DNA of 64,000 nucleotides from a virus, in IMG/VR virus record IMGVR_UViG_3300036402_000045, positions 1 to 64,000 of that record. The stretch is one strand, 5' to 3'. The notes beneath the pieces are model-generated. The model was not told where the DNA came from. It did not search any database and saw nothing but the letters and a program-made list of their open reading frames with translations. The translations under genes were made by a program, and so were the position numbers. Below, in pieces: positions 1 through 64,000 of this stretch (position 1 is its first letter; the number at the start of each line of letters is the position of its first letter).

Positions 1-1315
1 GTGCTCCACCACCGGGGTAGTAGTCGATGGCCCCTTGTGCCTGAAGCTGGAGAGCGGGCGTCGTACCGGCCGTGGACTGAATCCAAGTCGTATACGTTCC
101 GTCAGTCGAACGACTGAAATACATTCCGAGATCCGTGATCTTCGATGTCTGGTTGGCAACCTGGCTCGTTGCGTAGAACGACTGTCCGCTCGCATCAACC
201 CACTGACGCTTTGCAGATGCAGAGTCTTGCCACTCTTGAAGGTTTCCAACCTGAACAGCAGCGCCCCGAACCAGCAAACCGGCTTTGTCTGCCGCAGGAT
301 GGATTGACATAACGAACGGCGCTCGGTTGCCGCCGCTCGTACCGCCAGTGAAGATGTTCTCGGCAGCGGGAGTGCTCATGCCAGCCGCTAGATGAACCGT
401 TCCGCCGCTTACAACGTTGGTGAACCGAGCAACTCCTACGTAATAGCCGGTGTCGGTCATGTCCAGAAGCGGAACACCGGATTGTCCACCCGGCGCAACT
501 CGGAATGTCACGGCATCTGCGCTGGTTCGGATTTCGAACGGGTTGGCCGTAGGAGTCACAGCCATCTTGACGATCACTCCCGGCTGACCAGCCGAAGGGA
601 AAACCGAAAGCTTGGAGATGGGGAACTGCGGAGTAGCACCAATGACGACGCCGCCGTTGCTCGCCGCGGGCGAGAAGTGAATGCCGGTGTACGTTGCGTT
701 GCCGAGGCCCATCACCCGGTTGGCGTTTACTGCGGCGAGATCCTGGTTTATCAGGGTGTTGTCTCGTGAATCCCGGATGTTGTTGTTGACCCGGAGGAAA
801 GCGTTGGCGTTGACAACGACCGCCGAAGGGAAGAACTGGAGAACGTCGGTGCCAGTGACAACTGCCTTGAACGATCCAACAGAATCTTTGTAAAAGCCGG
901 TGCTGATTTCGGCAGCAAACCCCAGGCCGGGATTGCCAGAAGTTCCGGAAGGGATCAGAACCGGCCCAGTAAAGATGGACCCATCAAGAATGCCTGCCAC
1001 AGCCGTTGCGATCGCCGCAGGAGTGTCTGTCGCGGCCAACTCCACGATGGCCCCTTGCACGTCTACCGCAGCAACACCAGCAGCAGGAACGAACCTGACT
1101 TGCGAAGCAGTGAGGTTCGTCAGATAGCTGTCGGCTTGATCGATCGCAGCCTGCACGTCGCCTGCCGTGATGACAATGTTCCCGGCAGGGTTGTAGGCGA
1201 TGTTCGGAGCCGTGTCGGGCGGATAGACCGCGAACAGCGACGACACTTCGATGATGTCGGGCGTGTCCTCGCGAACGAAGACGCGATCAACGATGTCCAT
1301 TGAAGTGACGGTCAT
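1..1315 (-). CDS. Virion structural / tail-fibre-like protein, truncated by window edge
   Basis: Read manually: ATG at 1315 (ATGA overlap), MTVTSMDIVDRVFVREDTPD..., open to base 1; Gly/Ala/Thr-rich; downstream of terminase. Confidence 0.65.
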   Translation of the reverse strand, partial: MTVTSMDIVDRVFVREDTPDIIEVSSLFAVYPPDTAPNIAYNPAGNIVITAGDVQAAIDQADSYLTNLTASQVRFVPAAGVAAVDVQGAIVELAATDTPAAIATAVAGILDGSIFTGPVLIPSGTSGNPGLGFAAEISTGFYKDSVGSFKAVVTGTDVLQFFPSAVVVNANAFLRVNNNIRDSRDNTLINQDLAAVNANRVMGLGNATYTGIHFSPAASNGGVVIGATPQFPISKLSVFPSAGQPGVIVKMAVTPTANPFEIRTSADAVTFRVAPGGQSGVPLLDMTDTGYYVGVARFTNVVSGGTVHLAAGMSTPAAENIFTGGTSGGNRAPFVMSIHPAADKAGLLVRGAAVQVGNLQEWQDSASAKRQWVDASGQSFYATSQVANQTSKITDLGMYFSRSTDGTYTTWIQSTAGTTPALQLQAQGAIDYYPGGGA

Positions 1316-1725
1316 CGAGTGACTTGCTCCTTGATCGTGACGGTGCCCTCAGCCCACGGGATCTTGATGATGTCGGGAGCGGGAGACAGGAATTCGATGT
1401 CGTGGACGGCCCTGCCGAACTTTCGGAAAGTGTCAGTAACAGCCCACGGAAGATGGAACTCGATGTGACCGTTCACGCCTCCGAAGGTGATCGTGCCGTC
1501 ACGACCAACCACGTCAGCAGTTCCCAGCGTGGCGATCAGGATGCCACCAACGCGATCGCGGATCTGCATCTTCGCCGTGTAGCCCGTCGTGTCCACTGGC
1601 TCGTAAACGAGCTTCCCGGACGCGTCACGGGTGACATTGCCGTCAAGATCAAGCACAGGAGTCGTCCAGCGGAGGGTCTTGCGCCAGTCCGTGCCTGCCT
1701 TGATGGTGATGTCCCACGGGGCCAT
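1312..1725 (-). CDS. Putative virion structural protein (BppU N-terminal-like)
   Basis: DITIKAGTDW...DTTGYTAKMQIR...HDIE pattern; between terminase and fibre-like gene. Confidence 0.55.
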   Translation of the reverse strand: MAPWDITIKAGTDWRKTLRWTTPVLDLDGNVTRDASGKLVYEPVDTTGYTAKMQIRDRVGGILIATLGTADVVGRDGTITFGGVNGHIEFHLPWAVTDTFRKFGRAVHDIEFLSPAPDIIKIPWAEGTVTIKEQVTR

Positions 1726-1741
1726 AGCCCCCTATCTTGCC

Positions 1742-3493
1742 CTATCGCTTCTTCTTGCTCCCGAAACCACGGGCAATGGCGACGCGACCCCTACCTTGGC
1801 CTGTTGACGCCATCGCGCGGGCCTTGGCTCCCATCGGAGGCCCTTGAGTGCCGCCACGTAGGTCAGGGTTGGACGAGAAGGCTCGCGGAGGGATGGCGAC
1901 CTTGTGCAGCCCCAGTCGCTCGATGAAGCCCGCAAAATGGCAGATCATCGCGTCGCAAAGGTGGTCGTTCTTCTTGACGATCCGACCACCCTGGTCCCGT
2001 CGCCAACCACGCACCTGCTCGATGAACTCAACGTGCTCAGCGGGGATGACGAGGTTCGAGCCATCGACGTAGATGTTCATCGCCGCAGCAGACGTTTCCT
2101 TGACTTCGGAAAAGTTCACGTCGTTGACCGGAAGGCGATGTACGTCCCGAAGCTCTTGGTTCAGGTAGTTGCCGCCGCCACCGATGTCGCAGTTCACGGC
2201 AACGAGATCCGACCGGTACCGAGTGGCGTAGCCGATGATCGAGCCGAACATGTCGGTACGGGTGTTCTCCGGAAGAAGATCGGCGTGCAGGAGGATCTGC
2301 TTGCGGCCCTGCTCCTGCCATACCTCCACGGCACCGTTCCCCGTACCCCAGTCCACGTCGATGTCGATCGGATTGTTCGGAACGTAGAGCGAGTCCGCTG
2401 CGGTGTTCACGATCGAGTCGTTGAAGCGGGTCATGTTCAACACGACGTAGCCCGAAGTCGAAGGCCGCTGACCCATCGCTTCGACTTCCCAGCGAGCATG
2501 GTTGCGGCGCATACGACGCCACAGCTTCTCGATCTCTTCCATCGGAACCCAGCCCTCGGCGTACATGGCCTTTCCGCCGCAGTAAGCCTTGTGGATCATC
2601 TTCTCTTCGGGAAGACCGGTTTCCGTATTGGTGATCGTCTCTACATGGTCCTCGCGGAAGCACGGCTCCGGGGACTGGCACACGTCCACGCATTCGCAGC
2701 CCGCACAGACATCGAAGGTGTCCCAGCGGTAGAGCGTGTAGCCCATCTCTTCATGGTTGTCGATCAGTTCAGCAAACGACCCCGCAACATTGTGAAACGT
2801 GGAGCAACGCACGTTGACAGACGGCATGGCGGTGTTGATCGTCGGAAGAGCGGCATCAACGATGTCCTTGTCAGCTTCCGCTTCCTCATCGATGACCAGC
2901 AAACCGCCACGGGTCTTGCCACGGCGCTTACCGCCAGCGTGGGGCGAGCGAACGGACTTGGACGACGCGGTGAGCACCCGAACCCACGAGTCTTCGATCG
3001 AGAACGTCTTCTCCCGCTGCGGGTCCGTCTTGAGAAGCGTCTTCCAGTACGGGTCGCTCTCGATGTAGCCGATGAGGTACTGGTACACGTTGTCGGCCTG
3101 AAGTTCCGAACCACCGAGATTCAGCGCGTCAAAATCAAGCACCAACCACAGGTAGAACTCCACGAAGGAGACTCCGTAGCTCTTGCCGCCGCCTCGGGAG
3201 GCCACCGCAGCAGCGTCTCGGACCCGCAGGGTGCATACGTCATCGATCATCTCCCGCAGACCTGGATGACGTTTTCCGAACTTCGCCTCAGCCTCTTCCT
3301 CGGTCAGAACACCAAGCTCGATCATCCGATCGACGGGCTTACGCGGAAGAAGCAGCCCAAAGCGATCCGCAAGCTCCAGCGGCTTCCCTTTGAACTGCTC
3401 CTTCAGATTCCTACCTGGATCACGCAGCGCACGGAGGAAGTCAGCAGCCGAGGCTCCTTCCAGAGTGTTGCGATTTCGCTGCGGTGCGGGCAT
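1742..3493 (-). CDS. terL: Terminase large subunit
   Basis: Walker A ASRGGGKS, Walker B LLVIDEE, nuclease motifs DVDWG and KNDHLCDA; 583 aa. Confidence 0.9.
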   Translation of the reverse strand: MPAPQRNRNTLEGASAADFLRALRDPGRNLKEQFKGKPLELADRFGLLLPRKPVDRMIELGVLTEEEAEAKFGKRHPGLREMIDDVCTLRVRDAAAVASRGGGKSYGVSFVEFYLWLVLDFDALNLGGSELQADNVYQYLIGYIESDPYWKTLLKTDPQREKTFSIEDSWVRVLTASSKSVRSPHAGGKRRGKTRGGLLVIDEEAEADKDIVDAALPTINTAMPSVNVRCSTFHNVAGSFAELIDNHEEMGYTLYRWDTFDVCAGCECVDVCQSPEPCFREDHVETITNTETGLPEEKMIHKAYCGGKAMYAEGWVPMEEIEKLWRRMRRNHARWEVEAMGQRPSTSGYVVLNMTRFNDSIVNTAADSLYVPNNPIDIDVDWGTGNGAVEVWQEQGRKQILLHADLLPENTRTDMFGSIIGYATRYRSDLVAVNCDIGGGGNYLNQELRDVHRLPVNDVNFSEVKETSAAAMNIYVDGSNLVIPAEHVEFIEQVRGWRRDQGGRIVKKNDHLCDAMICHFAGFIERLGLHKVAIPPRAFSSNPDLRGGTQGPPMGAKARAMASTGQGRGRVAIARGFGSKKKR

Positions 3494-3522
3494 GACGCCA
3501 GAGAGTAGCGCCCTATAGCCGC

Positions 3523-3672
3523 TTAGTCGTCCTGCATGTTCCTCTGGACGTACTTGCGCTGTCTTGCCTTCTGAACCCGGTCCCGGCGCTCCTGAGCGGC
3601 CTCAGGTGTCTCTGGAGGCAGAACAGCATCGATCTCGGCAAGCACTTGATCGAGTGTGCGGTGATCCGTCAT
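3523..3672 (-). CDS. Hypothetical protein (49 aa)
   Basis: MTDHRTLDQVL..., GGAG RBS, fills gap. Confidence 0.55.
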   Translation of the reverse strand: MTDHRTLDQVLAEIDAVLPPETPEAAQERRDRVQKARQRKYVQRNMQDD

Positions 3673-3698
3673 CTTGAATCTCCGTTTCGCATACCCGC

Positions 3699-3917
3699 CT
3701 ACTCGTCCGAGAGTAACCCTCGGTCCTTTGCGAGCTTGAGATTCGCCTTCTCGGTTGCGATCGGGTCGTAGTGGTAGCGGAGCGCGGGGAACGACATAAG
3801 CATGTAGACCACGACTCTGTTCTCAGGGTCTACAGGATTCGGAAATATCCGAACCGAGTCAGTCGCGGCAGGCTCAACACAACCATCGAGAGGCCCGCCA
3901 AAGAAGGTGACGCTCAC
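3699..3917 (-). CDS. Hypothetical protein
   Basis: GTG start in GTGA overlap; FFGGPLDG motif common in phage small proteins. Confidence 0.6.
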   Translation of the reverse strand: MSVTFFGGPLDGCVEPAATDSVRIFPNPVDPENRVVVYMLMSFPALRYHYDPIATEKANLKLAKDRGLLSDE

Positions 3918-4162
3918 TTCTTGTGCTTCTTTGATTCCATGCACCAGTTCTCGAAGTCTTCCGAATTCGGATCTGCACGTACGTAGATGCCTGAGAACGT
4001 CATGGAACCGCACTTGCAGCATTGCTCCCACCGACAAGCTTCGTGCTTGAGTCGGGTCGGTTGACGAACCGACGTTCCTGCATCAGTCACGACGCTGTTG
4101 GACTCGAACCAGCAATCGTCACAGACCGGATGAGTCCATCGAGACTCGGGGTGGGCGCTCAC
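3914..4162 (-). CDS. Small Cys-rich hypothetical protein
   Basis: CxxC pairs; coupled overlaps. Confidence 0.6.
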   Translation of the reverse strand: MSAHPESRWTHPVCDDCWFESNSVVTDAGTSVRQPTRLKHEACRWEQCCKCGSMTFSGIYVRADPNSEDFENWCMESKKHKK

Positions 4163-4434
4163 TCTTCCGTCTCTTCGACCTGCATCTGATCGAAGAGTGC
4201 TACCTGAGCGCCCTGATCGGTGATGAAGCTGAAGCGGAAAACCGAATTTCCGTTCAGGATGATCGTGTCCTTCGAGAACCCAACGATCGTGGCCTCCACG
4301 CCACGCGCAGGCTCCACGCCATCAGGCGTGCGAACCTTGACCCGTTTCCCGACCCACTCGGCCAGGGACTCGTCTGTCCAGCCTTGGTCAAACTGGTCTG
4401 CCCAGTCCCCTGCCCATACCTCGATTGCTTCCAT
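4159..4434 (-). CDS. Hypothetical protein
   Basis: MEAIEVW with AAGGAG RBS. Confidence 0.6.
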   Translation of the reverse strand: MEAIEVWAGDWADQFDQGWTDESLAEWVGKRVKVRTPDGVEPARGVEATIVGFSKDTIILNGNSVFRFSFITDQGAQVALFDQMQVEETEE

Positions 4435-4463
4435 GTGCGCTCCTTGGCGTCTATTCGGAATAT

Positions 4464-4688
4464 TTACTTCGGTGCAGGAGTCTCGTCGGATGCGCGCACT
4501 CGGGCTTCGATGGCGGCGACGTGCTTCTCGCTGTGCGGCGGGGCACCAGGGTCGTCGGACTCGGACGCTGCGAGGATTGACGCTGCTTGCTCTCGGTCCT
4601 GCTCGGACGAGGAACCACAGTCGCATTTCTCGGCGTGCATCCGTTCAGCCAGTCGCACGACTTCCGGCAAATTCGGATTGTCACTCAT
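4464..4688 (-). CDS. Hypothetical protein
   Basis: MSDNPNLPEV..., operon packing. Confidence 0.55.
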   Translation of the reverse strand: MSDNPNLPEVVRLAERMHAEKCDCGSSSEQDREQAASILAASESDDPGAPPHSEKHVAAIEARVRASDETPAPK

Positions 4689-4878
4689 CGGTCTTCGGGA
4701 GATCGACCTGAACTTCCTTGTCCAAAGCAATGACCCACTGGGTTCCCGTGGTCCCGAAGGTCACGGACGCCTCGTTGTGCTCCAGGAAGGTGACTTCCTG
4801 TGCGTGGCGGCTGTTGGGGAAATGCAGCAGGTCGCCAATGACGACTTCGTTCGCGGTCTTGGTGATGGTTTCAGACAT
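4681..4878 (-). CDS. Hypothetical protein
   Basis: ORF track, overlapping neighbours. Confidence 0.6.
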   Translation of the reverse strand: MSETITKTANEVVIGDLLHFPNSRHAQEVTFLEHNEASVTFGTTGTQWVIALDKEVQVDLPKTDE

Positions 4879-5248
4879 CGACGTTCTTCTCGTCCTCTCG
4901 GGTGGTGATGAACTCCTTCACGGAGCCGTACCGCTCAATGGTAGGCAACCGGTGGTACTCCGTCCTTGCGGTACCGATCAGGACGACTCGCTTGTTGAGA
5001 GCGATGGCGATCCCAAGGGCGGTTTCGGAAATTGGCTCTGACGACCCCTTGCCGATGGCGTAGATCAGTCCATGCGACTTGGCGATGTCGTCCATCGCCG
5101 CCATAGCGGCCTCAGCCGGATCGTCATCATCGTCCTGAAGTAGATCGTCTCGCAGCCATCGAGCGGCCACGTCATCTCCGATCTTCTTCAACTCGTCCTT
5201 GAGCTTCCGAGAAGCCTTCTCGTTGCCGGTGACGTGCCAGCGCATCAT
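4871..5248 (-). CDS. Hypothetical protein, nucleoside deoxyribosyltransferase-like fold possible
   Basis: DIAKSHGLI...ETALGIAIALNKRVVLIG resembles NDT-like pattern. Confidence 0.45.
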   Translation of the reverse strand: MMRWHVTGNEKASRKLKDELKKIGDDVAARWLRDDLLQDDDDDPAEAAMAAMDDIAKSHGLIYAIGKGSSEPISETALGIAIALNKRVVLIGTARTEYHRLPTIERYGSVKEFITTREDEKNVDV

Positions 5249-5249
5249 C

Positions 5250-5480
5250 TCAGTTCACCACCCGAAAGGCGGGGCCTTGTTCTTCGAAGATGTACGACTC
5301 GTAGTGCCGGATCTCCGTGCCCGAGGGGTTTGTGACGTTGATCCGAAGCTCCATGAGTCCCATCTTCTCCACGATGCCGCCTGCGGCCTTCTGGAAGGCG
5401 TCGGGGGCCGTACTGGGGCCGTTGAGGAAGGGAAACTCGTCCTTCAGGGCTTGCGCCAGCTTCTCGATGAACTTGTCCAT
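5250..5480 (-). CDS. Hypothetical protein (leaderless)
   Basis: MDKFIE; CGTATCA 6 nt upstream. Confidence 0.6.
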   Translation of the reverse strand: MDKFIEKLAQALKDEFPFLNGPSTAPDAFQKAAGGIVEKMGLMELRINVTNPSGTEIRHYESYIFEEQGPAFRVVN

Positions 5481-5486
5481 ATCTTC

Positions 5487-5493
5487 TGATACG
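5487..5493 (-). promoter_or_regulatory. CGTATCA phage promoter motif
   Basis: 6 nt upstream of ATG 5480; motif recurs at fixed spacing. Confidence 0.7.
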
Positions 5494-5496
5494 CAA

Positions 5497-5540
5497 ACGC
5501 GGAGAGATCCCCCGTCCGTTGCCCAAACAGGGGATCTCTC
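5497..5540 (-). terminator. Hairpin with CGCGT tail
   Basis: GAGAGATCCCC/GGGGATCTCTC stem. Confidence 0.55.
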
Positions 5541-5572
5541 GCAGAGGCCGGGGAAGTGGCCTGTCATGCAGC

Positions 5573-5821
5573 CTAGAGGACGGCTCCGCGGATCTCGACA
5601 CTCTCGATGTCCTCCAGAGCGAAGTAGACGGGCCTCATTGTGTCCGTCTTGACGCCCACAATCCGAAGTAGCTCATGGTCGATCTCCAGGATCGAGCACG
5701 ACGACCCTGTGCCGTTGCTGCGGGTGATGAACACTTCGTACCCGAACTCACAGGGCAAATGGAGGATCACAAGCCAATGAAGAGGGTCGATTCGCTTCCT
5801 TTCACGCCTCTCAGGAGCCAC
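5573..5821 (-). CDS. Hypothetical protein
   Basis: ORF track, packing. Confidence 0.55.
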   Translation of the reverse strand: MAPERRERKRIDPLHWLVILHLPCEFGYEVFITRSNGTGSSCSILEIDHELLRIVGVKTDTMRPVYFALEDIESVEIRGAVL

Positions 5822-5822
5822 G

Positions 5823-6212
5823 CTAAACCTCTGAAATTCCGTTCAGAATGTTCAACATCTCTCCCAAAAGTTCCGGATTTGACTTGAAATTGGCACTCTT
5901 GGCGTCTCTGAGGCTGAAAACCACTTCAGAACCCTTCAGAATGGTTACAGACACCCGCATGGAGTCAATACTGACCACTTCAGCGTCTCCGCGAAGCTCT
6001 TCGAAGGGATCATCGACCGAAACCTCGATGTCCCAGAGCGGATCAGGGTTCGCAGGAACCACATTGCTGCCGATGTCTTCGATCCAGCCCCGATCTGCGG
6101 CCTCAACGAGAGCGAAGGCGTTTGCACCGACTCGAAGGTAGGTGATGCCGAGGGTTTCTTCGAAGGCCGCGGGCGTGGGGCAGCTATCAGTGATCGACCA
6201 AGTGTGCCTCAC
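5823..6212 (-). CDS. Hypothetical protein
   Basis: GTG start in GTGA overlap. Confidence 0.55.
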   Translation of the reverse strand: MRHTWSITDSCPTPAAFEETLGITYLRVGANAFALVEAADRGWIEDIGSNVVPANPDPLWDIEVSVDDPFEELRGDAEVVSIDSMRVSVTILKGSEVVFSLRDAKSANFKSNPELLGEMLNILNGISEV

Positions 6213-6445
6213 GAAGAAACCTTCCGAAAGAACTCGTTGAACGCCTCGGTGCGGGCTGCGGATTGGGATTCCTTGTCGTTGACGAAGATGACCGTGTGCC
6301 ATCCAACGATATGTTGACTACTGGCGTAGGAGAAACCGTTTGCGTCCCGACCTGACATAGCAGGGACCACAGCGCGCATCTGAACCTCGGCCTTCCATCG
6401 ATCGTCGTGCTGCCGCTCGGTGACGATGTGGAACTCAATCTCCAT
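6209..6445 (-). CDS. Hypothetical protein
   Basis: MEIEFH with GGAGG RBS. Confidence 0.55.
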   Translation of the reverse strand: MEIEFHIVTERQHDDRWKAEVQMRAVVPAMSGRDANGFSYASSQHIVGWHTVIFVNDKESQSAARTEAFNEFFRKVSS

Positions 6446-6725
6446 CGGATTCCTCCAAACGCAACGAGTCCACGTACTTCGCAAGATCGTTCTGGTACTT
6501 ACGAATCGTGTAGATGACCGGGCCGACGATGTTGTCCAACTCCTGAACGGCATCCCGAGCCTTTGCCGAGAGATCCGATGAGTCATCGGCTTCCAGACGA
6601 AGGCGAAGCTCGCTGAGGTAGATCGTCTCCTTCTTCGGGCCAACGTGGGCGAACCACTTCTCGCCCCGCATGGCGCACTTGGCAACGACGTGGACGCCCT
6701 CGATCTCGAAAGCTGTGATCCTCAT
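6435..6725 (-). CDS. Hypothetical protein
   Basis: MRITAFE, ATGA overlap. Confidence 0.6.
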   Translation of the reverse strand: MRITAFEIEGVHVVAKCAMRGEKWFAHVGPKKETIYLSELRLRLEADDSSDLSAKARDAVQELDNIVGPVIYTIRKYQNDLAKYVDSLRLEESDGD

Positions 6726-6943
6726 TCGGAAACCTCTTCCTCGGTGAGCGCTGAGATGTTGAACCCGACGAGCTTGCGTTCGAGTCCTGCGATCTCCAGC
6801 TTGGCGGCTTCCTTGTTGATGCACCGCTCTCCGGTAGGCGAATACTGATCCGGGTAGGTGCCGGTCTTCAACTGCTCCACGCGGCGAGCGTAAGCACGCT
6901 CCTGACGGCGGCGCTTCATGGGATGAGATGTCTGTCGTGCCAT
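6722..6943 (-). CDS. Hypothetical protein (leaderless)
   Basis: CGTATCA at 6950-6956. Confidence 0.6.
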   Translation of the reverse strand: MARQTSHPMKRRRQERAYARRVEQLKTGTYPDQYSPTGERCINKEAAKLEIAGLERKLVGFNISALTEEEVSE

Positions 6944-6956
6944 GTCTGGTGATACG

Positions 6957-7226: not shown

Positions 7227-7264
7227 ATCTTCTGATACGCCTTCCGCGTTTTTCGGATATCGGA

Positions 7265-7350
7265 GCGACTTTCACCTACCCATGCAAACCCGCAGGTCAG
7301 GAACTATGGAGTAGGTGAAATAAATTGCTGACTCGCAATCCCATAGTCGC
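7265..7350 (-). ncRNA. Intergenic three-way-junction RNA structure (candidate)
   Basis: Outer stem GCGACT/AGTCGC, hairpin ATTGC/GCAAT, long arm TTTCACCTAC/GTAGGTGAAA. Confidence 0.35.
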
Positions 7351-8355: not shown

Positions 8356-8368
8356 GACTACTGATACG

Positions 8369-8752: not shown

Positions 8753-8772
8753 AGCTCCCGCTCATTCGGTAA

Positions 8773-12904: not shown

Positions 12905-13440
12905 CGGAAAGCCTTTCGGTCTGGGGGTTCCTCCGAACCCCGCAAGTGCAACGTTACACGTTTCGGAATGTTTCTGGGGTGACTTGAGGAACGCGTGCGA
13001 CGCGCGCGCACGTAGTAAGCGGATTTCCGTTCCGGAGCGCTGGAGGTTCGGAACGTTCCGATGCTCGCGATAGTTAGCGGTTTGCTAGCTGTTCGGAACG
13101 TTCCGATCCTCAAATCGCTTCAGAGGTTCGGAAACCTCGTTCCGCGTGTCGTCGGCGCGGAATGGCGGTTCCGGAGCGCTCGCGGGGTTCTAGGGGGTTC
13201 TCACGCCTAGCTAGAGGAACCGTCCGGACCGCGTGACGTAGCGCTAGGCGTGAGGTTCGGAGCGCTAGCGGTTCGGAATGTCCGATATCGACGCTTGCAA
13301 GCGCGCGGAACCCCTCATTTCGGAGTGTTCGAGCGCTCCAGCTAGCGCGGCGTGACCGCGTGCGATCGGCAGGGGACGAGCGCGCCCGCGCTCCGGAATA
13401 TTCGGTCTGCCTAACTTCAGAATGTCGGCGCGCCTAACGG
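12905..13440. repeat. Non-coding repeat region
   Basis: GTTCGGAACGTTCCGAT at 13046 and 13091; 18- and 22-nt repeats shared with the 11.2-11.4 kb region. Confidence 0.6.
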
Positions 13441-13447
13441 AATGTGT

Positions 13448-15064: not shown

Positions 15065-15093
15065 AGTATGCCTTTCGGAAAGTTTGGCGTCAA
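15065..15093 (-). promoter_or_regulatory. SigA-type promoter with TTCCGAA in spacer
   Basis: TTGACG-17-CATACT, 7 nt to ATG. Confidence 0.7.
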
Positions 15094-15441: not shown

Positions 15442-15470
15442 AGTATGGCTTTCGGAATCTTCTGCGTCAA
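15442..15470 (-). promoter_or_regulatory. SigA-type promoter with TTCCGAA in spacer
   Basis: TTGACG-17-CATACT, 7 nt to ATG. Confidence 0.7.
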
Positions 15471-16615: not shown

Positions 16616-16644
16616 AGTCAACACGACTTCGGAATCTTTGTCAA
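16616..16644 (-). promoter_or_regulatory. Early promoter, near-duplicate of 36462-36490
   Basis: TTGACA-AAGATTCCGAAGTCGTG-TTGACT-GAGGGC-ATG. Confidence 0.65.
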
Positions 16645-17856: not shown

Positions 17857-17917
17857 GCGATTGCTTTCGGCGTAGTAGGGATTGGAAACAACAGTGTCGC
17901 AGCTTTCGGAATGTTTG

Positions 17918-18112
17918 TCAAACGGGATCGGAACCACCGAGAGGCGGATCGTCGTCTAGGCCAAGCTGAGCGGCCACTTCCGACAGAAGCTCGTCGGTGT
18001 CCTCCAGGCGATCACCGGGACGCCCGTAATCCATCCACCAGCGAACAGCTTCGGCGTCGGAATCGAACTTGTGAACGACCTCACCGGCGTCATTGCAGAC
18101 GTGGACGGCCAT
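17918..18112 (-). CDS. Hypothetical protein
   Basis: ORF track, coupled. Confidence 0.5.
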   Translation of the reverse strand: MAVHVCNDAGEVVHKFDSDAEAVRWWMDYGRPGDRLEDTDELLSEVAAQLGLDDDPPLGGSDPV

Positions 18113-18444: not shown

Positions 18445-18506
18445 AGTGAATCACATTCGGAAACATTCCGCAAGAGCTTGACTTCAGAATCTCCGTAGGC
18501 CACTAT
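18445..18506. promoter_or_regulatory. Back-to-back divergent SigA-type promoters
   Basis: (-) TTGCGG-17-TTCACT 6 nt to ATG 18438; (+) TTGACT-17-CACTAT 7 nt to ATG 18514. Confidence 0.6.
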
Positions 18507-19009: not shown

Positions 19010-19249
19010 ATGCCTCAGAGCACAGAAGCGAAAGAGCGGCGTCGGGCCACGGCACGCGAGAAGCTGGTCAAGGTCACCGAGGACCGGAAGGCCGCTGAAG
19101 ACAAGGCCGATCGTCTACGCCGGAAGCAGTTCCGATTCATTCTCAAGTCCCATCAGAGCGGACTGACCTACCGTGAGATCGCAGCGGTTACCGGTCTGAC
19201 CGAGATCCGCATCGCTCAGATCCTTCGAGCCGAGAGAGAAGCCGCATGA
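19010..19249 (+). CDS. HTH DNA-binding protein (sigma-70 region 4-like)
   Basis: GLTYREIAAVTGLTEIRIAQIL; GAAAGG RBS. Confidence 0.75.
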   Translation: MPQSTEAKERRRATAREKLVKVTEDRKAAEDKADRLRRKQFRFILKSHQSGLTYREIAAVTGLTEIRIAQILRAEREAA

Positions 19250-20179: not shown

Positions 20180-20240
20180 AAGAGGATCAGGAGGAACAGG
20201 TGCCGTAGGCATCGACCAGACCCCTGATCCTCTTTCGCGT
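20180..20240 (+). terminator. Hairpin between convergent genes, CGCGT tail
   Basis: AAGAGGATCAGG/CCTGATCCTCTT. Confidence 0.55.
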
Positions 20241-20878
20241 CAGGAGCCGGTTAGAAGCTCTGCGCTCTCAAGCTCCAGGACATCGAAGGCCGAAGCCTGT
20301 GATCCCGCCCCGAGATATTCGGAAAGTGTCGTGGTCAAGAAGTCATCGAGCGAATCCCGAAGCTCGCCCTTCACGTTCTCGACAAGCCAACGCAGGATCG
20401 CGTCCTGCACGACCTTGATCTGCATCATGGCTGCGATCACTTCGGACTTGACCCCGAGCACGCCGAGGATCTTGCTCCGTTGGTCCTGCGCCTTCAGGAG
20501 CACGTTGAGGTACTTCGTGCGGGCGTCGTCACCGATCGGCCAATCGAGCCGAAGTTCGGATTCCTCTCCGCAATGCTCGCACTCGATCGTTCGCTTGATC
20601 GTGCGCTTGTCCGAGATCTGTTGGTGAGCATCGGCCCGGATCTGGTCAAGCTCTTCGAGCGCCCGGATCGTGTTGGCGAGCACGTCACGCAGAAAGCCCG
20701 GATTGGCTGCTGCTTGGGCGTGTATGCGCTTGTCGTAGAGCGTCCGGTACTTCCCCGCCGTGTCCTTGTTGATCCGCAGACGCTTGGCGACATCAACGTT
20801 CGTGTATCCCTTGGCGAAAAGCTCGAACGCCTTCTCTCGCCTTTCGGAAAGTCCAAGCTTCGATTTGCTGGCTGCCAT
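20240..20878 (-). CDS. HTH protein with Zn ribbon, possible terminase small subunit
   Basis: N-terminal HTH (GYTNVDVAKRLRINKDT), CEHCG, LLKAQDQRSKILG helix. Confidence 0.55.
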   Translation of the reverse strand: MAASKSKLGLSERREKAFELFAKGYTNVDVAKRLRINKDTAGKYRTLYDKRIHAQAAANPGFLRDVLANTIRALEELDQIRADAHQQISDKRTIKRTIECEHCGEESELRLDWPIGDDARTKYLNVLLKAQDQRSKILGVLGVKSEVIAAMMQIKVVQDAILRWLVENVKGELRDSLDDFLTTTLSEYLGAGSQASAFDVLELESAELLTGS

Positions 20879-21552: not shown

Positions 21553-21582
21553 GTGCCAGTGAAGCACCGTTCGGAATGTCTG

Positions 21583-22131
21583 TCAACCCCGAAGTGCAAT
21601 CCACCAGCAACGAGGCCAACCGGATCGGGAACCGCCTCGCCCTCCGATCATGCCAAGCCATCGAACCGCTGCCTCTCTCTGCACTTCGTAGCTCTCGGAG
21701 CCGTTGATTCCGACCTTCGATGCTGTGTCACGGGAGAACTGGAAGTAGCCGAGATACTTGCCCGATCGTCCATCGGCGGATTCGCAGTTCGCCAACCGCC
21801 TCCAGAAGTCAGGAGAGGGGTCTGTGGTCGCTTCTGTGGGCTTCGGAGTGTTCGTCGGTACTGATGGCGCATACCGACGACTTCGATCAGCACGGGCTTT
21901 CTGAAGAGCCACCTTGCGGTTCCGTTCGATCGCAGCGCCCCACCGCTCGATTCGATCTGCCTGAGCCGCTTGCTCCCAAGCAATGCTTTCGGAAAGTCCT
22001 GCCGTTGGATCTGCTGTTGGGACTGATGCCGCTGTCTCAAGCGTCGTGCTCGAAGCCTCCGCAGTACCGCACGCCGATACCGCGGAGCCAAGACTGAGCA
22101 GAGCGCCCAATAAGGCGAGCCATCGTTTCAT
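21583..22131 (-). CDS. Resuscitation-promoting-factor-like lytic transglycosylase, predicted lipoprotein
   Basis: Signal peptide with VSAC lipobox; WRRLANCES, YLGYFQFS, QREAA, WPRC. Confidence 0.8.
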   Translation of the reverse strand: MKRWLALLGALLSLGSAVSACGTAEASSTTLETAASVPTADPTAGLSESIAWEQAAQADRIERWGAAIERNRKVALQKARADRSRRYAPSVPTNTPKPTEATTDPSPDFWRRLANCESADGRSGKYLGYFQFSRDTASKVGINGSESYEVQREAAVRWLGMIGGRGGSRSGWPRCWWIALRG

Positions 22132-27012: not shown

Positions 27013-27061
27013 GCCCCTCACCTTAGTAGAATGTTTCCGAAGTTGCAAGTCGAAATTTCAG

Positions 27062-29809: not shown

Positions 29810-29864
29810 AAGCACCAATCTAACAGCTTCGGAATGTTTACGTCAAGCGAATATTCGGAAACCC

Positions 29865-30842: not shown

Positions 30843-30903
30843 ACAGAGATCCTAAGGGATAAACATTCCGAAGTCAAGACGGAGATTGCTAAGCGGCAGA
30901 TTT

Positions 30904-32680: not shown

Positions 32681-32750
32681 TGCGCTCCCTTTCGGTTGTA
32701 GTCGTCGTGCTGAGTATGGATCGGAATGTTTCCGATGTCAAGAAGGTTTC

Positions 32751-34229: not shown

Positions 34230-34258
34230 ATTGAATCATGCTTCGGAATGTTTGTCAA
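34230..34258 (-). promoter_or_regulatory. Early promoter with TTCCGAA in spacer
   Basis: TTGACA-17-TTCAAT. Confidence 0.6.
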
Positions 34259-36455: not shown

Positions 36456-36522
36456 GCCCTCAGTCAACATCACTTCAGAATGTTTGTCAACAGGAAATCT
36501 CACGGAACGTTCGGAAGGTCGG

Positions 36523-39584: not shown

Positions 39585-40060
39585 AGCTCTTGGTCTGTGG
39601 CTCCCGTGATTGGGACGACGAGAACACCATCTGGTCGATCCTCGACGGCTACTACGAGAACGACACACTGGGCCACCTGACAGTCACGATGGCGTCGTTC
39701 ACATTGATCGAAGGCGGGGCCAAGGGAGCGGACGCTTGCGCTCACCGATGGGCAAAGAACAGCCCGCTGCATTCGCACAACGAGCGACCTGATGATCCGG
39801 AGTTCCGTCACGTCACGGTCAATGCGAAGTGGGACGAGCATCATCCCAAGTGGTGTCCTTCGGACTGGTGCGCCGCGCGGGACTACTGCGTTGGTGCCGG
39901 TCCTCGTCGCAACCAACGAATGATCGATCGACACAAGCCCGATCTCGTTCTCGCATTCAAGAACGGGTTCAACTGGAAGCTCAACAAGGGCGGCACCGAA
40001 GACATGGTTTCCCGCGCCATCGCAGCAGAGATCGATTACTACGTGATCGGAAGGAAGTAA
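39581..40060 (+). CDS. SLOG (YspA/DUF2493) protein
   Basis: LLVCGSRDW, IEGGAKGAD, AGPRRNQRM, GGTEDM. Confidence 0.85.
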   Translation: MKLLVCGSRDWDDENTIWSILDGYYENDTLGHLTVTMASFTLIEGGAKGADACAHRWAKNSPLHSHNERPDDPEFRHVTVNAKWDEHHPKWCPSDWCAARDYCVGAGPRRNQRMIDRHKPDLVLAFKNGFNWKLNKGGTEDMVSRAIAAEIDYYVIGRK

Positions 40061-40767
40061 TGCCCCGCACCAAGCTCAAGGAGCATCCGGCTCCGTTCTC
40101 GAACGTCATCCTCGATCAGTTGCGGATCATGGTTGCCGCCGAACAAGAGCGCCGTCATGGATTTGGAATGTCTACCAACCTAAGACTTCTCGATCCGTTC
40201 GCTGGCATAGGGAAGATCCACAACATCGGCGGTCACGGAATCAAAACCGTAGGCGTAGAGCTTGAACCCGAATGGGCCGCATGGCACGCTGCGACCATCG
40301 TTGGCAACGCTCTGGATCTGAAGTTCCGCAGACACAGCTTCGACATCATCGCGACCAGCCCGTGTTACGGAAACCGGATGGCCGACCACCACAACGCACA
40401 GGACGGCTCACACAGGCGTAGCTACAAGCACTACCTCGAACGTGACCCTTCTCCCATGAGCGCAGGGGTCATGTATTGGGGAGACGAGTACCGGGAGTTC
40501 CACACCGAAGTCGTCATCGAGCTTGACCGTGTGCTGCGCCCCGGTGGTCTGGTGCTCTGGAACATCTCCAACCACAAGAAGACGATCAACAAGGGACAGC
40601 CCGCCGTAGAGCAGAAGGTCAGCGAGTGGTACATGGCGCTGTTCCTCGGCATGGGTTGGACCCTCCAAGAAGTGCGCCCGATCAAGACGCCCCGCTACAA
40701 GTACGGATCGAATTCCGAAACCCGTACCGAGTTCGAGTTCATCATCGCCATGAGAAAGCCGTTCTAA
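40060..40767 (+). CDS. DNA amino-methyltransferase (N4C/N6A type)
   Basis: HPAPF, LLDPFAGIG, TSPCY (SPPY-like), RVLRPGG. Confidence 0.8.
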   Translation: MPRTKLKEHPAPFSNVILDQLRIMVAAEQERRHGFGMSTNLRLLDPFAGIGKIHNIGGHGIKTVGVELEPEWAAWHAATIVGNALDLKFRRHSFDIIATSPCYGNRMADHHNAQDGSHRRSYKHYLERDPSPMSAGVMYWGDEYREFHTEVVIELDRVLRPGGLVLWNISNHKKTINKGQPAVEQKVSEWYMALFLGMGWTLQEVRPIKTPRYKYGSNSETRTEFEFIIAMRKPF

Positions 40768-59358: not shown

Positions 59359-59799
59359 TCAGACCTTGAAGACCTTCGCCATGACGAGGTACACGATGAT
59401 GGCGCAGGCAGTAGCGAGCAACGCCGTCTGCCAATCAAGATGACCGTCTTCGTTCGGAGTCTTCTTCCCGCGAACCGTGGCACCGGGAATCATCTTGAGA
59501 CGAGCCGGATCATCCGAAGGGCGCTTGGCCGAGAGGTAGTCGGCGGCGAGGCCAGCACCAGATCCAACGGACAAGCCGATGGCAATGAGGGAGTAGGCGT
59601 TCATCTTCGCCAGCGAGCCGCCGATGTCGATCTGCGAAGCGAAGTCGGTCTGTGCGTAGAGCACGACGGCGACAACGCCCGCAAGCCAAGCGGAGGCCGT
59701 GGTCACGATGCCGTTGATGTCGCGGTTCGTGAGGTACTTGGTGAAGTCGATCACCTTCTTCACCAACGCCAGCATTGCGAGTACGGGTACGAATTCCAT
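59359..59799 (-). CDS. Putative holin
   Basis: Several TM helices, AAGGAG RBS, lysis cassette. Confidence 0.6.
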   Translation of the reverse strand: MEFVPVLAMLALVKKVIDFTKYLTNRDINGIVTTASAWLAGVVAVVLYAQTDFASQIDIGGSLAKMNAYSLIAIGLSVGSGAGLAADYLSAKRPSDDPARLKMIPGATVRGKKTPNEDGHLDWQTALLATACAIIVYLVMAKVFKV

Positions 59800-59807
59800 T
59801 CTGCTCC

Positions 59808-60386
59808 TTACGGGTTGGTGGTGGTGGTCGTGGAAGGAACGACCGGTGCCGGAACACTTCGTACCTCTCGGCACGCGTCCCGAACCTCGGGGATCTGAAC
59901 ATTCGGAATCTGAGGACGGAGAGATTCGAGGACGATCCGATTGTTCTCTTCGGTCTTGCAATCCACGGCTTCGATGATCTGGTTCACAAGCAACTGAGTT
60001 GACGCCACCTGTGAAGCCGTGGCTTCAGGCCCCGTCACCTTCTGAAGAATCGCTAGCGAGGAAGCGGTGTTGTCGATCGCTGTGCGGTTGTCACGACTGA
60101 ACTGGCGCTGGTCCCAGTAAGCCAGTCCTGCGAGCACAAACGCCGCTGCGAAGACAACACATGCGAGCTTGAACCAACGACGGTCCCGCTCGCGTTCTTC
60201 ATCCCCCTGCTGAACCTTGATCGTCAGGGTCTTCGTTGCTACCGCCAGTTCCCCGACCTTCTCGGCCATCATCGTCATCGAGGCCGTGAGGCCAACCAGA
60301 AGATGAACTTTCAGAGTTTCCTCTGACTCCGATGGGAGTGACGGAGGCGTCTGAAACGCCGTCTGTTCGTCGTTCGGTCCTGTCAC
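59808..60386 (-). CDS. Membrane protein in lysis cassette
   Basis: Coiled coil, TM helix, extracytoplasmic domain with two Cys. Confidence 0.55.
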   Translation of the reverse strand: MTGPNDEQTAFQTPPSLPSESEETLKVHLLVGLTASMTMMAEKVGELAVATKTLTIKVQQGDEERERDRRWFKLACVVFAAAFVLAGLAYWDQRQFSRDNRTAIDNTASSLAILQKVTGPEATASQVASTQLLVNQIIEAVDCKTEENNRIVLESLRPQIPNVQIPEVRDACREVRSVPAPVVPSTTTTTNP

Positions 60387-61194: not shown

Positions 61195-62151
61195 CTACTC
61201 CGTAACACTGACCTGCACATGGGCAGGCCATCCCGGTGCCCATCCTTCGACCGAGAGGATCGTCCCGTTGCTGCCGGGAAGGTCATCGGCAGCGAAGCCG
61301 AGCTTGGCGTTCTGGTACTTCTGGTCAGCCTCCGGGCGCAGGCCAGGTTCGAGAGCACCCTTGATCTGGGTCTTCGACCACGGAAGACGGACCCAACCGA
61401 ACCCGGCATAGGGACCGGAGCTTCCGGTTCCAACGATCACGTCGTAGGTGTTCAACTGCATGTCAATTTCCTCCGATGAGAGAAGCGTGAGCCACGCCGG
61501 GGGCGCGGGAGTTGGCGGCGTTGGTTCGGAAATCACCATGCCACCACGAACGAACTGCATTACTGCACCGCCAGGGCAAGCGGTCTGCTTCCAATCGGCA
61601 TGAACGTGCCGCTCGGTTCCGGAGCCGCGGGCCTCGTACCACTCGAAGACATTCCGAAGTCCACGTCGGGCATCCACAGTGAACTCATCGCCCTCGCCCA
61701 TCAAGACGCAATGGGCGTAGCTGCGATCGTTCCCGGTATTGGTGCCGTTGGCAGCCGTTCGCCATCCGTACCAGCGTCCTTCGAAGATGAACCCGTGACG
61801 GCAAGTGACATCGGAATATGCGATGTCATTCCAGCCCTGGTGCTCCATGTGGTACTTCTGAATTCCACGGAGCTTGGTGGCGCAGGACGTGTGCGGATAG
61901 TCCCCGAGGCCCGGACCTTCCCAGTGGGCCGTGTTGCCGCGTGCGGTCGTTAGACCGGTCCTGCCCGTTGCGGCCTTGGCTCCCCAAGAAACCCGAGGGA
62001 TGAACTTCGCAGGCGGCGGCGTTCCCTTGACGCTGAGGATGGCGTTCTGGAAAGGCGGGGACTCGATCTGGCCGACGTACTCCAGAACCTCGTAAAGCTC
62101 CAGGAGATCCGCAGGAACGGAAAGATGTTCTGCTTCGAGAAGCTCAGTCAA
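61195..62151 (-). CDS. Endolysin, N-acetylmuramoyl-L-alanine amidase (PGRP-like)
   Basis: RVSWGA, AHW, IQKYHM..GWNDIAY, EGR, HADW..TACPG. Confidence 0.88.
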   Translation of the reverse strand: MTELLEAEHLSVPADLLELYEVLEYVGQIESPPFQNAILSVKGTPPPAKFIPRVSWGAKAATGRTGLTTARGNTAHWEGPGLGDYPHTSCATKLRGIQKYHMEHQGWNDIAYSDVTCRHGFIFEGRWYGWRTAANGTNTGNDRSYAHCVLMGEGDEFTVDARRGLRNVFEWYEARGSGTERHVHADWKQTACPGGAVMQFVRGGMVISEPTPPTPAPPAWLTLLSSEEIDMQLNTYDVIVGTGSSGPYAGFGWVRLPWSKTQIKGALEPGLRPEADQKYQNAKLGFAADDLPGSNGTILSVEGWAPGWPAHVQVSVTE

Positions 62152-62926
62152 GGGGACTCCTGAATGCTTGGTAGAGCGTCGCGCCGAACTGCGGCGTCTG
62201 CGGATAGGACGGAGAAGGCAGCGCCAAACGGATGCGGCGATACCACTCGCGGAACGTCTTCACGTCAGGACCGAGAGCATCGATGGCCGCTCGGGTGAAG
62301 GCTCCGTTGGGACGATTTCCGAAGGAGGCGTCGTAGCTGTATTCCGGATCGTCGCAACCCGAGATCAGAACCGGACCGCTTCGACTCGTCGCCCGGATGA
62401 ACGTGCGCTCTGCGGCGATGGCAGCCTCGACGCTCACGGGAACCGAAGGGATCAAGCCGGGAGAGATGAACTTCGGCTTTCCGGGAGGGGGAGCAGACGC
62501 CATGATCCCTCGGGCCACGGTTCCGGAGTGGCAGGAATCCGAAAGAACCGTGATCTGCGTTCCGTGGCGAGCACGGCCAAAGATCGTGTGCATCTCGTCA
62601 TCGATGAGAAGGCCACCGCTGGCGTAGTCGTGACAGCACAGCGCTTCGTCACGACCATCCGGCTCGTCACCGTCGCCGTCCGGAACCCACGTCCCGTGAC
62701 CCGAGTAGCAGAACACGAACCGATCCCGGTACTTCATCGAATCCACGATGCCGAGAAGTTCAGCCACGATCCGGGCCTTGGTAGCCGAGGAATCCAGAAG
62801 CGTCGTGACGGTGTAGCCGCGCGACTGAAGAACCTGTGACCAGTCCATCGCATCGTTGATGCAACCGGAAAGATCTCCCGCTCCGGGGTAGTCGTTGATC
62901 CCTACGCACAAGGCAATACGTCGCAT
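62144..62926 (-). CDS. Metacaspase (peptidase C14)
   Basis: ALCVGINDY, LSGCINDA, YSGHG, DGDEPDGRDE, SDSCHSG, GAFT. Confidence 0.92.
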   Translation of the reverse strand: MRRIALCVGINDYPGAGDLSGCINDAMDWSQVLQSRGYTVTTLLDSSATKARIVAELLGIVDSMKYRDRFVFCYSGHGTWVPDGDGDEPDGRDEALCCHDYASGGLLIDDEMHTIFGRARHGTQITVLSDSCHSGTVARGIMASAPPPGKPKFISPGLIPSVPVSVEAAIAAERTFIRATSRSGPVLISGCDDPEYSYDASFGNRPNGAFTRAAIDALGPDVKTFREWYRRIRLALPSPSYPQTPQFGATLYQAFRSPLD

Positions 62927-63235: not shown

Positions 63236-63509
63236 GACTGATCTTCTTTCCGGTGGTCTTGCGGGGCTTGGGGGTCGTTACCCGACCGTTGTGCTTCGGC
63301 CTGTCCTTCATCGCTGCTTCCAGAGCTTCGGTCAAGCTCACCTTCTCCTGCGAGATCTGCTCGATCACCGCATCGAGCACGGTGTTCTCTCGAAGAAGCT
63401 GTGCGTTCTTTCGCTCCAGCGCCCGGACATAGGCGTTGATGTCCAGATTGATTCCGCCCTCTGGAGCTTCGGGTACTTCGGGAACCTGCTTTTCCGGTTG
63501 CGGCGTCAT
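63228..63509 (-). CDS. Coiled-coil hypothetical protein
   Basis: AAGGAG RBS. Confidence 0.6.
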   Translation of the reverse strand: MTPQPEKQVPEVPEAPEGGINLDINAYVRALERKNAQLLRENTVLDAVIEQISQEKVSLTEALEAAMKDRPKHNGRVTTPKPRKTTGKKISHA

Positions 63510-63537
63510 GCGCTCTTCTCCTTGTCTTGGTCGGCCA

Positions 63538-64000
63538 TCAGGCTGCCTTCTTCTTCAGAGCATCAACTTCTTCGGAAAGCTCTCGAACCGCCTGCCACAA
63601 GATAGCGAGTACGCCGAGAGGCTGGACACCCTTGGTTTCGAAGACTTCCTTGTCGTTGGTGTTGCTCTTCAGCATCGTCCGGTGGACAACTTCAGGAGGC
63701 AGGGTCGTTGCGTCGAATCCGAAATTGTCTCGATCGGAATCCGAGTTTTCACCCGGACGCCACTTGAACTTGATGGGGGTGATGGCCTTCACCTTGTCAA
63801 GCTGTCGTCCCGCAGAAGCCTTCAGTGGCTCGATGTTTCGCTTCAGCCGCGGATCGGATTGATCCACATGCACACCGGCATGAGAGTTGCGCCAAGCGGT
63901 TGACGCTTGGTTGACGTGGCGAGCGGCACCGACACCGAAGCCGTCGTGGTAGCGCCCAGCCTCGATGGAAACGTCCCATGCAGCAGACGTGATGGCGGTG
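63538..64000 (-). CDS. Tail fibre C-terminus with intramolecular chaperone (peptidase S74), partial
   Basis: Frame open to window end; SDPRLKRNI, LWQAVRELSEEVDALK. Confidence 0.8.
   Translation of the reverse strand, partial: TAITSAAWDVSIEAGRYHDGFGVGAARHVNQASTAWRNSHAGVHVDQSDPRLKRNIEPLKASAGRQLDKVKAITPIKFKWRPGENSDSDRDNFGFDATTLPPEVVHRTMLKSNTNDKEVFETKGVQPLGVLAILWQAVRELSEEVDALKKKAA

Follow-up and report, generated by a model that had tools for sequence, protein, structure and literature searches.

Why does a virus write the same seven bases into its genome about once every 470 bp, within genes as well as between them, and what might read them? We address this question for a stretch of 64,000 nucleotides (the window), which consists of bases 1-64,000 of one 89,782-bp virus record (IMGVR_UViG_3300036402_000045; the whole genome is labelled G000 and is estimated to be 88% complete). 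The element is TTCSGAA, in which S stands for C or G. An original prediction, made from the letters alone, had reported that this near-palindrome is enriched throughout and had proposed that a phage protein binds it, both as an early-gene operator and as a coat or self mark of the genome. We find that the enrichment is real, that it acts on DNA and that it is common to a clade of phages. That the motif is the multi-copy binding site of a helix-turn-helix (HTH) protein of 79 residues, encoded at 19010..19249 on the plus strand, that it serves as operator at early promoters, and that its roughly 150 intragenic copies are kept by selection on their number, is a reading to which we give an even chance. 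The interpretation in the original prediction is thus partly supported, and its coat or self-mark function is one that we would infer.

The window (1..64000) contains 138 exact sites in both orientations and all reading frames, compared with 13.18±3.55 in 100 dinucleotide-preserving shuffles, none of which reached 138 (maximum 23). The whole genome holds 185 sites (2.06 per kb), with 5 to 16 in each 5-kb bin, and this similar density over 89,782 bp confirms what had been seen by eye, as does the count for bases 1-10000, where an estimate of about 20 sites turned out to be exact. The chance expectation had been put at about one site per 10 kb, which is somewhat low, given that the shuffles yield about 2.1 per 10 kb, and the guanine plus cytosine (GC) content is 58.5% instead of about 61%. 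Under a trinucleotide model TTCSGAA ranks first among all 7-mers (185 observed, 33.4 expected), and ranks 2 to 4 are occupied by overlaps of the motif itself. A maximal-order Markov ranking does not flag the 7-mer, because the motif itself enriches the sub-words from which that model is built. Spacing in G000 is more even than random, with a coefficient of variation (CV) of 0.79 against 0.99±0.07 (a fraction of 0.0008 of 5,000 random placements is as low) and five empty 1-kb bins where 11.2 are expected.

Most copies lie where a protein is also encoded. With respect to 144 gene calls, which are approximate since they come from a self-trained codon-usage caller and not from a validated program, 150 sites are coding and 35 intergenic, so that 81% of the copies are found within genes. 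The density is nevertheless higher between genes (3.6 per kb) than in coding sequence (1.87 per kb), so that sequence which encodes no protein carries more of the motif per kb. Sites occur in each of the six classes of frame and orientation (16 to 53 per class), they are evenly distributed along genes, and the peptides SE, FR, FG, xPK/N and xRK/N recur at coding sites, much as had been described. ORFs (open reading frames) that end in SE had been remarked upon as well; they exist, but with 4 of 144 genes they are unremarkable. We compared the 151 sites observed in coding sequences (CDS) with three coding-aware controls of 300 shuffles each, the kind of test that had been named as capable of refuting the enrichment. 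Shuffling synonymous codons within genes leaves 26.9±4.9 sites, shuffling the order of codons leaves 13.7±3.6, and a third-base shuffle that keeps the protein sequence, the codon usage and all dinucleotides leaves 37.5±5.4, with a maximum of 65. The enrichment survives all three, and because each of them falls far below the observed number, the excess acts at the level of DNA. Among the peptide positions capable of carrying the motif, 14 to 62% do encode it.

These controls bear directly on another explanation, namely that the excess is a by-product of base composition or of codon or dipeptide usage. Amino-acid sequence is indeed shifted about twofold toward motif-compatible peptides (26.9 sites with the protein kept, 13.7 with codon order shuffled), and the enriched sub-words and unflagged 7-mer of the maximal-order Markov ranking would also suit such an account. 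However, no protein-, codon- and dinucleotide-preserving shuffle came near 151, the intergenic density exceeds the coding density, and related genomes of similar GC lack the excess altogether. We regard a codon or composition artefact as ruled out by the three coding-aware shuffles, and consider this explanation scarcely credible. Whatever holds the motif so far above expectation works on the DNA and not on protein or codon usage.

The site has a defined shape. S is preferred at its centre, although TTCWGAA (W being A or T) is still enriched 2.75x under the trinucleotide model, and among one-off variants ATCCGAA (2.1x) and TTCCGAT (1.7x; TTCSGAT form 1.7 to 2.1-fold) exceed expectation while the others are mostly at or below it. 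T is favoured before the motif and A or T after it. This graded enrichment of variants is the pattern that would be expected for binding, and TTCWGAA and TTCSGAT appear to be weaker versions of a site whose apparent longer forms are TTTCSGAAA and, in promoters, ACATTCCGAAG. On the plus strand, summed over genome bins, 110 copies read TTCGGAA and 75 read TTCCGAA. This bias flips with the strand of the gene, with no switch along the replicon, and it is restricted to the frame in which the centre of the motif is the third base of a Ser codon (TCC versus TCG, 53 versus 19). In the remaining two frames the two forms are equal (41 versus 37), which indicates that the site is effectively symmetric.

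To see which relatives share the excess, we considered soil phage contigs from IMG/VR collected through capsid and DnaE searches (capsid identity 59 to 79%), counting sites over each whole record and using the pattern read backwards as control. The motif is frequent in G001 (134 sites in 81.3 kb, control 7), G002 (32 in 78.4 kb, control 12) and G005 (20 in 16 kb, control 1), and G009 has 7 sites in 18.8 kb (control 1). It is rare in G003 (5 in 74.3 kb, control 3), G004 (6 in 72.9 kb, control 3), G006 (1 in 42.8 kb, control 2), G008 (0 in 16.6 kb, control 2), G010 (1 in 14.2 kb, control 1) and G007, which has terminal repeats and is 100% complete (4 in 80.9 kb, control 8). Shuffles of the coding sequences gave the same division: 108 CDS sites versus 24.9±4.1 in G001 and 25 versus 6.0±2.3 in G002, compared with 4 versus 3.9 in G003 and 5 versus 5.7 in G004, so the excess in the first two is also exerted on DNA. 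In G002, 24 of the 32 sites belong to the 9-mer TTTCSGAAA, often inside AGTTTCSGAAACT, and the symmetric site of that genome spans 9 to 13 bases; G001 also shows strong enrichment of the TTCSGAT form.

The enriched genomes are very distant from each other, with about 50% protein identity between G000 and its relatives, and their sites are rarely in the same places. In 34 ortholog pairs between G000 and G001, which carry 58 and 44 sites, 6 positions coincide (about 0.09 expected by chance), and none does between G000 and G002 (51 and 12 sites). Because the sites turn over between relatives, what is maintained is the number or density of the motif and not its occurrence at fixed places.

Other iterated words are present in these relatives. 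The motif-less G006 (loci L046-L048) has a palindrome of its own, ACCCTAGG, with 21 copies versus 0.9 expected in 42.8 kb, which is apparently part of CACCCTAGGGTG, and G004 has a weaker trace of this kind (TAGGGTGA, 9 versus 1.2 expected). The non-coding stretches of G001 (locus L015, about 2700-11500) contain the 14-bp perfect palindrome ATCCGAATTCGGAT beside TTTCCGAA sites, and AAAGTTT occurs 39 times in that genome versus 2.5 expected.

Which gene follows the motif? The gene at 19010..19249 encodes our candidate binder, a protein whose long N-terminal stretch looks helical and whose C-terminal part is an HTH resembling sigma-70 region 4.2. Among the near-complete genomes, the motif is enriched in all three that carry this gene and in none of the three that lack it, and a profile of the family matches G000, G001 and G002 and none of G003, G004 and G006 to G010. 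We compared G000 with eight relatives by tblastn, using its 144 proteins and then its 1,521 six-frame ORFs of at least 35 residues. Two of the 1,521 are present in G001 and G002 yet absent from G003, G004, G007 and G006: the ORF at 18956-19246, which corresponds to the HTH gene, and one for a multi-pass membrane protein at 59362-60024. In G006, the homologue of the adjoining HTH_23-like protein (20240..20878, minus strand) and the amidoligase cluster are retained, but the HTH gene and the motif are both missing. A metagenome contig of only 2,037 bp that encodes a 72%-identical homologue has five motif sites. The HTH gene of G001 is preceded by TTGACA-aag-TTCCGAT and faces a 700-bp spacer with five exact sites.

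The protein belongs to PHROG 686 in PHROGs ('HTH DNA binding protein'), and when the family profile is compared with solved structures WhiG gives the best match, through its region 4.2 (E 1.9e-4, 27 residues). Its N-terminal stretch is charged and helical in look, with insignificant matches to tropomyosin. The residues E65, I66, R67, Q70, I71, L72 and R73 of the predicted recognition helix are invariant in eight aligned family members, and the core motif is invariant too. An exhaustive profile search returned 146 representative clusters at E ≤ 0.001, with 20 reaching E ≤ 1e-10, and most have 55 to 120 residues. The members P0013, P0018 and P0155 are encoded on contigs of 77.7, 79.3 and 89.8 kb, respectively, and one member, on an 89.8-kb contig, had been named a sigma24-family protein by its source. 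Three long proteins (P0024, P0027 and P0057) show 5 to 7 repeated matches to the HTH part and are thus HTH arrays in one chain. No IMG/VR viral contig beyond G001 and G002 was found to carry the family, cultured phages gave no homologue of the 79-residue protein at E below 0.05, and the family was not found in species genomes.

Sigma factors of the WhiG/flagellar clade recognise a -35 element TAAA (PMC8325347), and this seems close to the GAAA half of TTTCSGAAA, a resemblance between the -35 of that clade and the extended site. The 19010 protein lacks a region 2, and it does not fit the -35-reading part of a sigma factor, given that the motif lies in the SigA-type spacer, beside an ordinary -35. 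A second promoter-like class in the genome consists of (tg)CGTATCA followed by six bases and ATG, and it precedes many genes on both strands (for example at 5493, 6956, 7239, 8368, 37888, 46685, 52341 and 58639), which suggests leaderless transcripts read by something other than the main sigma factor of the host. We rejected the idea of a split sigma factor in which the 19010 protein would supply region 4 for these CGTATCA promoters, since TTCSGAA was not found at a fixed distance upstream of them.

The position of the motif at early promoters is what leads us to infer an operator role. In about a dozen SigA-type promoters of the leftward-transcribed early region it either lies in the spacer between -35 and -10 or directly adjoins the -35, an operator-like place as had been proposed, and all ten of the promoter positions listed in the original prediction proved to be exact sites beside a TTGACx or TTGCxx hexamer. 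The motif begins 5 to 13 nt (5, 7, 10, 12 or 13) from the start of this -35-like hexamer, and because the offset varies, an operator fits better than a fixed promoter element. A consensus scan of 13000-32999 finds 10 promoter-like sites (4.0±1.7 expected), of which 5 have the motif or TTCCGAT in the spacer. Two promoters on the minus strand read TTGACG-17-CATACT with TTCCGAA in the spacer (15065..15093 and 15442..15470), and a third on that strand, TTGACG-18-TAGATT (29817..29846), has TTCCGAA in its spacer and a second site 26 bp upstream at 29854; the arrangement TTGACG-N6-7-TTCCGAA is thus seen at 15093, 15470 and 29846. TTGACA followed by four nt and TTCCGAA occurs, again on the minus strand, in promoter-like sites at 16616..16644 (aaca, with a weak -10), 17893..17921 (aaca), 21558..21586 (gaca, then TTCACT) and 34230..34258 (aaca, then TTCAAT), and with the central-W variant TTCTGAA at 36462..36490 (aaca). 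Also on the minus strand are TTGCGG-N17-TTCACT at 18445..18473, recognised by eye, with the motif placed as TTGCGG-N5-TTCCGAA, and TTGACA-17-CATACT at 32713..32741 with the one-off variant TTCCGAT in the spacer. In two further minus-strand cases the motif has the reverse form and sits against the -35: TTGCAA-c-TTCGGAA ... TAAGGT (27020..27048) and TTGACT-17-TAGGAT with TTCGGAA directly after the -35 (30849..30877). On the opposite strand at 18478, TTGACT is directly followed by the variant TTCAGAA, by eye, upstream of the cassette that contains the HTH gene.

A non-coding array at 12960..13440, to which no strand is assigned, holds five exact sites (12962, 13047, 13092, 13127 and 13272) and many one-off variants. 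Within it, the palindrome TCGGAACGTTCCGA stands at 13048-13061 and again at 13093-13106, the two places at which the original prediction had put it. The array immediately adjoins a cluster at 13448-13549 of DnaA-box-like 9-mers (TGTGGACAA, TTTTCCACA and similar), arranged as an imperfect inverted repeat of 31 nt in a non-coding stretch, and a possible role for this cluster is that of a phage origin that uses host DnaA. Nearby, the gene at 11481-12902 (473 residues, no family match) has the same repeats on either side (11040-11400 and 13160-13350), including an exact 22-nt copy at 11343/13327 and a 21-nt copy of 95% identity at 11201/13183.

If the motif is a protein-binding site, the binder could still be another one, either a host factor or a different phage protein, with the HTH gene co-travelling through shared ancestry only. 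We think this unlikely, but several observations speak for it or weigh against our preferred reading. The co-occurrence of gene and motif rests on six near-complete genomes, which are all related and phylogenetically non-independent. The absence of the gene from G004 is uncertain, because the contig stops at the homologue of 20240, exactly where the HTH cassette would lie, and tblastn at E 1e-3 can miss proteins that are small and evolve fast. Every Pfam match of the 19010 protein falls short of its gathering cut-off (Sigma70_r4_2 with 20.6 bits against 25.7, Sigma70_r4 with 17.9 bits against 24.1). It is awkward to place two HTH domains on the same face of the helix when their half-sites are separated by only 4 bp, and a tight 7-bp near-palindrome is a better fit to a ribbon-helix-helix or basic-helix dimer. 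G001 and G002 have few sites within recognisable promoters. The even spacing, which had been named as a check and which is found in G000, is absent from G001 (CV 1.08) and a mere tendency in G002 (0.75; a fraction of 0.067 of placements), so it carries little weight. Finally, a host protein or a host modification system may be responsible.

What argues for the 19010 protein over another binder is how few genes follow the motif: the only other one of the 1,521 ORFs with this distribution encodes a membrane protein. The original prediction had named several phage proteins, and its notion of a phage-encoded binder is upheld in so far as the enrichment is confined to relatives that encode the 19010 protein, the first of its candidates, while the others fell away. 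The 20240 protein has homologues in the motif-less G003, G004, G007 and G006, and the 22572 protein, the primase, the helicases and RecA, common to all relatives, likewise occur in motif-less genomes, so that none of these qualifies as the specific binder. The candidate at 23772 (ORF 23464-23892) has no family match and its distribution does not match that of the motif. A gamma-glutamylcyclotransferase (GGCT)-like gene at 30904 initially fitted the distribution but was also found in the motif-less G006. As to a host factor, the 9-mer TTTCSGAAA reaches at most 0.06 per kb in 401 sampled genomes of Actinomycetota, the phylum of the Gaiellaceae metagenome-assembled genome G011, compared with 0.31 to 0.37 per kb in the phages. 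None of the 401 has more than 90 copies, the controls are similar, and none of the 15 unpublished genomes in the sample (G131, G012, G185, G402, G237, G059, G250, G029, G347, G159, G093, G279, G329, G354 and G099) stands out. We rejected a host-genome trait on this basis, which is a sample only.

An improbable alternative is that the excess is driven not by selection for binding but by DNA modification or biased repair of the HIP1 or Dcm/Vsr type, through an enzyme of host or phage. Short near-palindromes with an odd centre are typical of enzyme sites, and G000 encodes a putative N6/N4 DNA methyltransferase (40060..40767, plus strand). The excess is also seen in all frames, as it is with HIP1 (PMC5861425). 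However, the match of this methyltransferase is below the Pfam cut-off (24.9 bits against 26.7), and with no homologue in either G001 or G002, both of which are enriched, it was discarded as the agent that the original prediction had suggested. Searches of G000 to G004 for C5 methyltransferases (PF00145), Dam-type methyltransferases (PF02086) and Vsr (PF03852) found none, and the N6/N4 family (PF01555) matches in G000 only, below cut-off. Transition products are not depleted (2.75x enrichment for TTCTGAA, 0.8 for TTTCGAA), the one-off variants show a graded enrichment, the place of the site within promoters is fixed, and relatives of similar composition do without the excess.

The motif might instead be a recombination or replication signal, for example one that shields linear phage DNA from a host helicase-nuclease in the manner of Chi, or a priming or loading site, which we consider very improbable. 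A density of this order would suit such a signal, the spacing in G000 is more even than random, the array lies beside DnaA boxes, and the phage encodes RecA, a DnaB-like helicase, a DnaG-type primase, DnaE and an SNF2 helicase. Yet these enzymes also occur in relatives that lack the motif. Signals of the Chi and KOPS type have a polarity, whereas TTCSGAA is its own reverse complement except for the centre and is nearly identical on both strands, with an orientation bias only in the Ser-codon frame. Such a signal would also leave the position in promoter spacers unexplained.

The genome itself looks actinophage-like. Its DnaE is similar to that of Streptomyces, Mycobacterium and Gordonia phages, and SigA-type promoters and many starts of leaderless appearance are traits of the same kind. 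ThyX and dCTP deaminase are encoded in addition to the replication proteins, no tRNA genes were found, and because a search for integrases found neither a tyrosine nor a serine recombinase in this estimated 88% of the genome, the phage is probably lytic. No close relative was found among cultured phages, and relatives of ThyX, through which we sought the host, are scattered over phyla. Among public sequencing runs the stretch is present in only one soil metagenome, probably its source, and no RNA sequencing run containing it is listed.

Several other genes deserve a record of their own. A caspase-family protein (Peptidase_C14, E 6.8e-24) is encoded in the lysis region at 62144-62926. The cluster at 30904-35688 comprises an amidoligase (34750-35688), a class-II glutamine amidotransferase (33239-34201) and the GGCT-like gene (30904-31302), adjoins the SNF2 helicase gene (28052-29815) and is common to several relatives. 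A protein with a YAcAr domain of the SLOG family (39581-40060) lies immediately upstream of the putative methyltransferase and abuts it. Outside the window, at 83283-89723 of the genome (locus L002 3283-9723), a single ORF of 2,146 residues ends the record, and it has no homologue in the eight relatives.

Returning to the reading we prefer, we hold it evenly balanced whether the 79-residue sigma-4-like protein is the reader of the site. If it is, it would bind TTCSGAA either as a dimer or as a monomer that is blind to orientation. Bound at promoters, the protein would block the host RNA polymerase and so shut off the early genes of this lytic-looking phage, while the roughly 150 intragenic copies would load the same protein along the whole genome. 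Such loading might serve as a roadblock to read-through, concentrate the factor on phage rather than host DNA, organise the genome, or act in counter-silencing.

More tentatively, and on balance we doubt it, a clade of lytic soil actinophages may keep a density-coded mark of self DNA, at about 2 sites per kb and in every frame, read by a tiny free-standing protein akin to sigma region 4 that would be both a switch at early promoters and a genome-wide organiser, roadblock or discriminator of self from non-self. Per kb, the phage carries about 40 times as many sites (2.06) as G011 does (0.05, from 123 heptamers in 2.4 Mb), and the protein would thus gather on phage DNA. Such a mark would be a viral counterpart of HIP1 or of Noc-type chromosome marks. 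Writing the motif into genes bends codon choice and, about twofold, amino-acid sequence, and it is kept across relatives in which only about half of the protein residues are the same. Should the HTH protein prove to be the reader, this would be a compact and tractable system for asking by what means a virus marks all of its genome for a single protein, and with what benefit. It would also tie a family of small sigma-4-like proteins to a defined function, and add a phage case to the old question of why there are iterated palindromes such as HIP1.

How does this compare with known systems? The sites of Noc, SlmA and MatP, and the CIR sites bound by the repressor of phiC31, a Streptomyces phage, have lengths of 12 to 17 bp and occur in tens of copies per replicon. 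They are similar in that dozens of palindromic sites for one DNA-binding protein mark or organise a replicon, but here the site has only 7 to 9 bp and occurs about twice per kb.

The stoperators of Cluster A mycobacteriophages, which have an immunity repressor of the L5 type, are similar in that one phage HTH protein, in our case a candidate, has many sites across the genome, some of them in early promoters and others elsewhere. As described in PMC9283540, stoperators are asymmetric 13-mers, a little over twenty in number, located in short intergenic spaces and oriented with transcription, and they are bound by a monomeric two-domain repressor of 183 residues from temperate phages. Measured against that description, none of the four defining features tested was found in G000. 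The site is a 7-bp near-palindrome in 185 copies, its orientation does not follow transcription (41 versus 37 in frames 0 and 1; frame 2 shows a bias that follows Ser codon choice), 150 of the 185 copies lie inside gene calls even though promoter sites exist, and the candidate has 79 residues and one HTH in a phage for which no integrase was found (88% complete). Known multi-site regulators of this kind use tens of long, oriented and mostly intergenic sites, whereas here a very short site occurs about 150 times in coding sequence.

Word searches of the literature on the motif and on over-represented palindromes in phage genomes turned up only the repeat TGTTCGGNNNCCGAACA of Cluster O mycobacteriophages, which is not proof that nothing else is in print. 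This repeat is 17 bp long, dyad-symmetric and present in more than 30 copies per genome, and PMC4351075 gives its function as unknown. In the first 50 kb of Corndog the heptamer TTCSGAA lies within all 13 copies of TGTTCGGNNNCCGAACA, and only 4 heptamers are found outside the repeats. The repeat resembles our motif in being dyad-symmetric and spread throughout an actinophage genome, but it is longer, many of its copies are intergenic or near gene starts, and cultured phages gave no homologue of the 79-residue protein at E below 0.05.

HIP1 (GCGATCGC) of cyanobacteria is a short palindrome whose copies, inside genes and between them, exceed expectation many-fold; it is a non-randomly distributed element of the chromosome, thought to be maintained by selection (PMC5861425). 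We find the same strong over-representation in all frames and between genes. HIP1, however, marks cellular chromosomes and is recognised by orphan methyltransferases, while no methyltransferase in G000 to G004 tracks the phage motif. HIP1 sites are also conserved in position, compared with about 10% shared with the closest enriched relative here, although these relatives are very distant. The analogies to stoperators and HIP1 drawn in the original prediction therefore hold loosely: asymmetric, oriented, intergenic 13-mers on the one side and the tie to a methyltransferase on the other are not shared. By this comparison, the TTCSGAA system appears to resemble both stoperators and HIP1 while having the defining features of neither.

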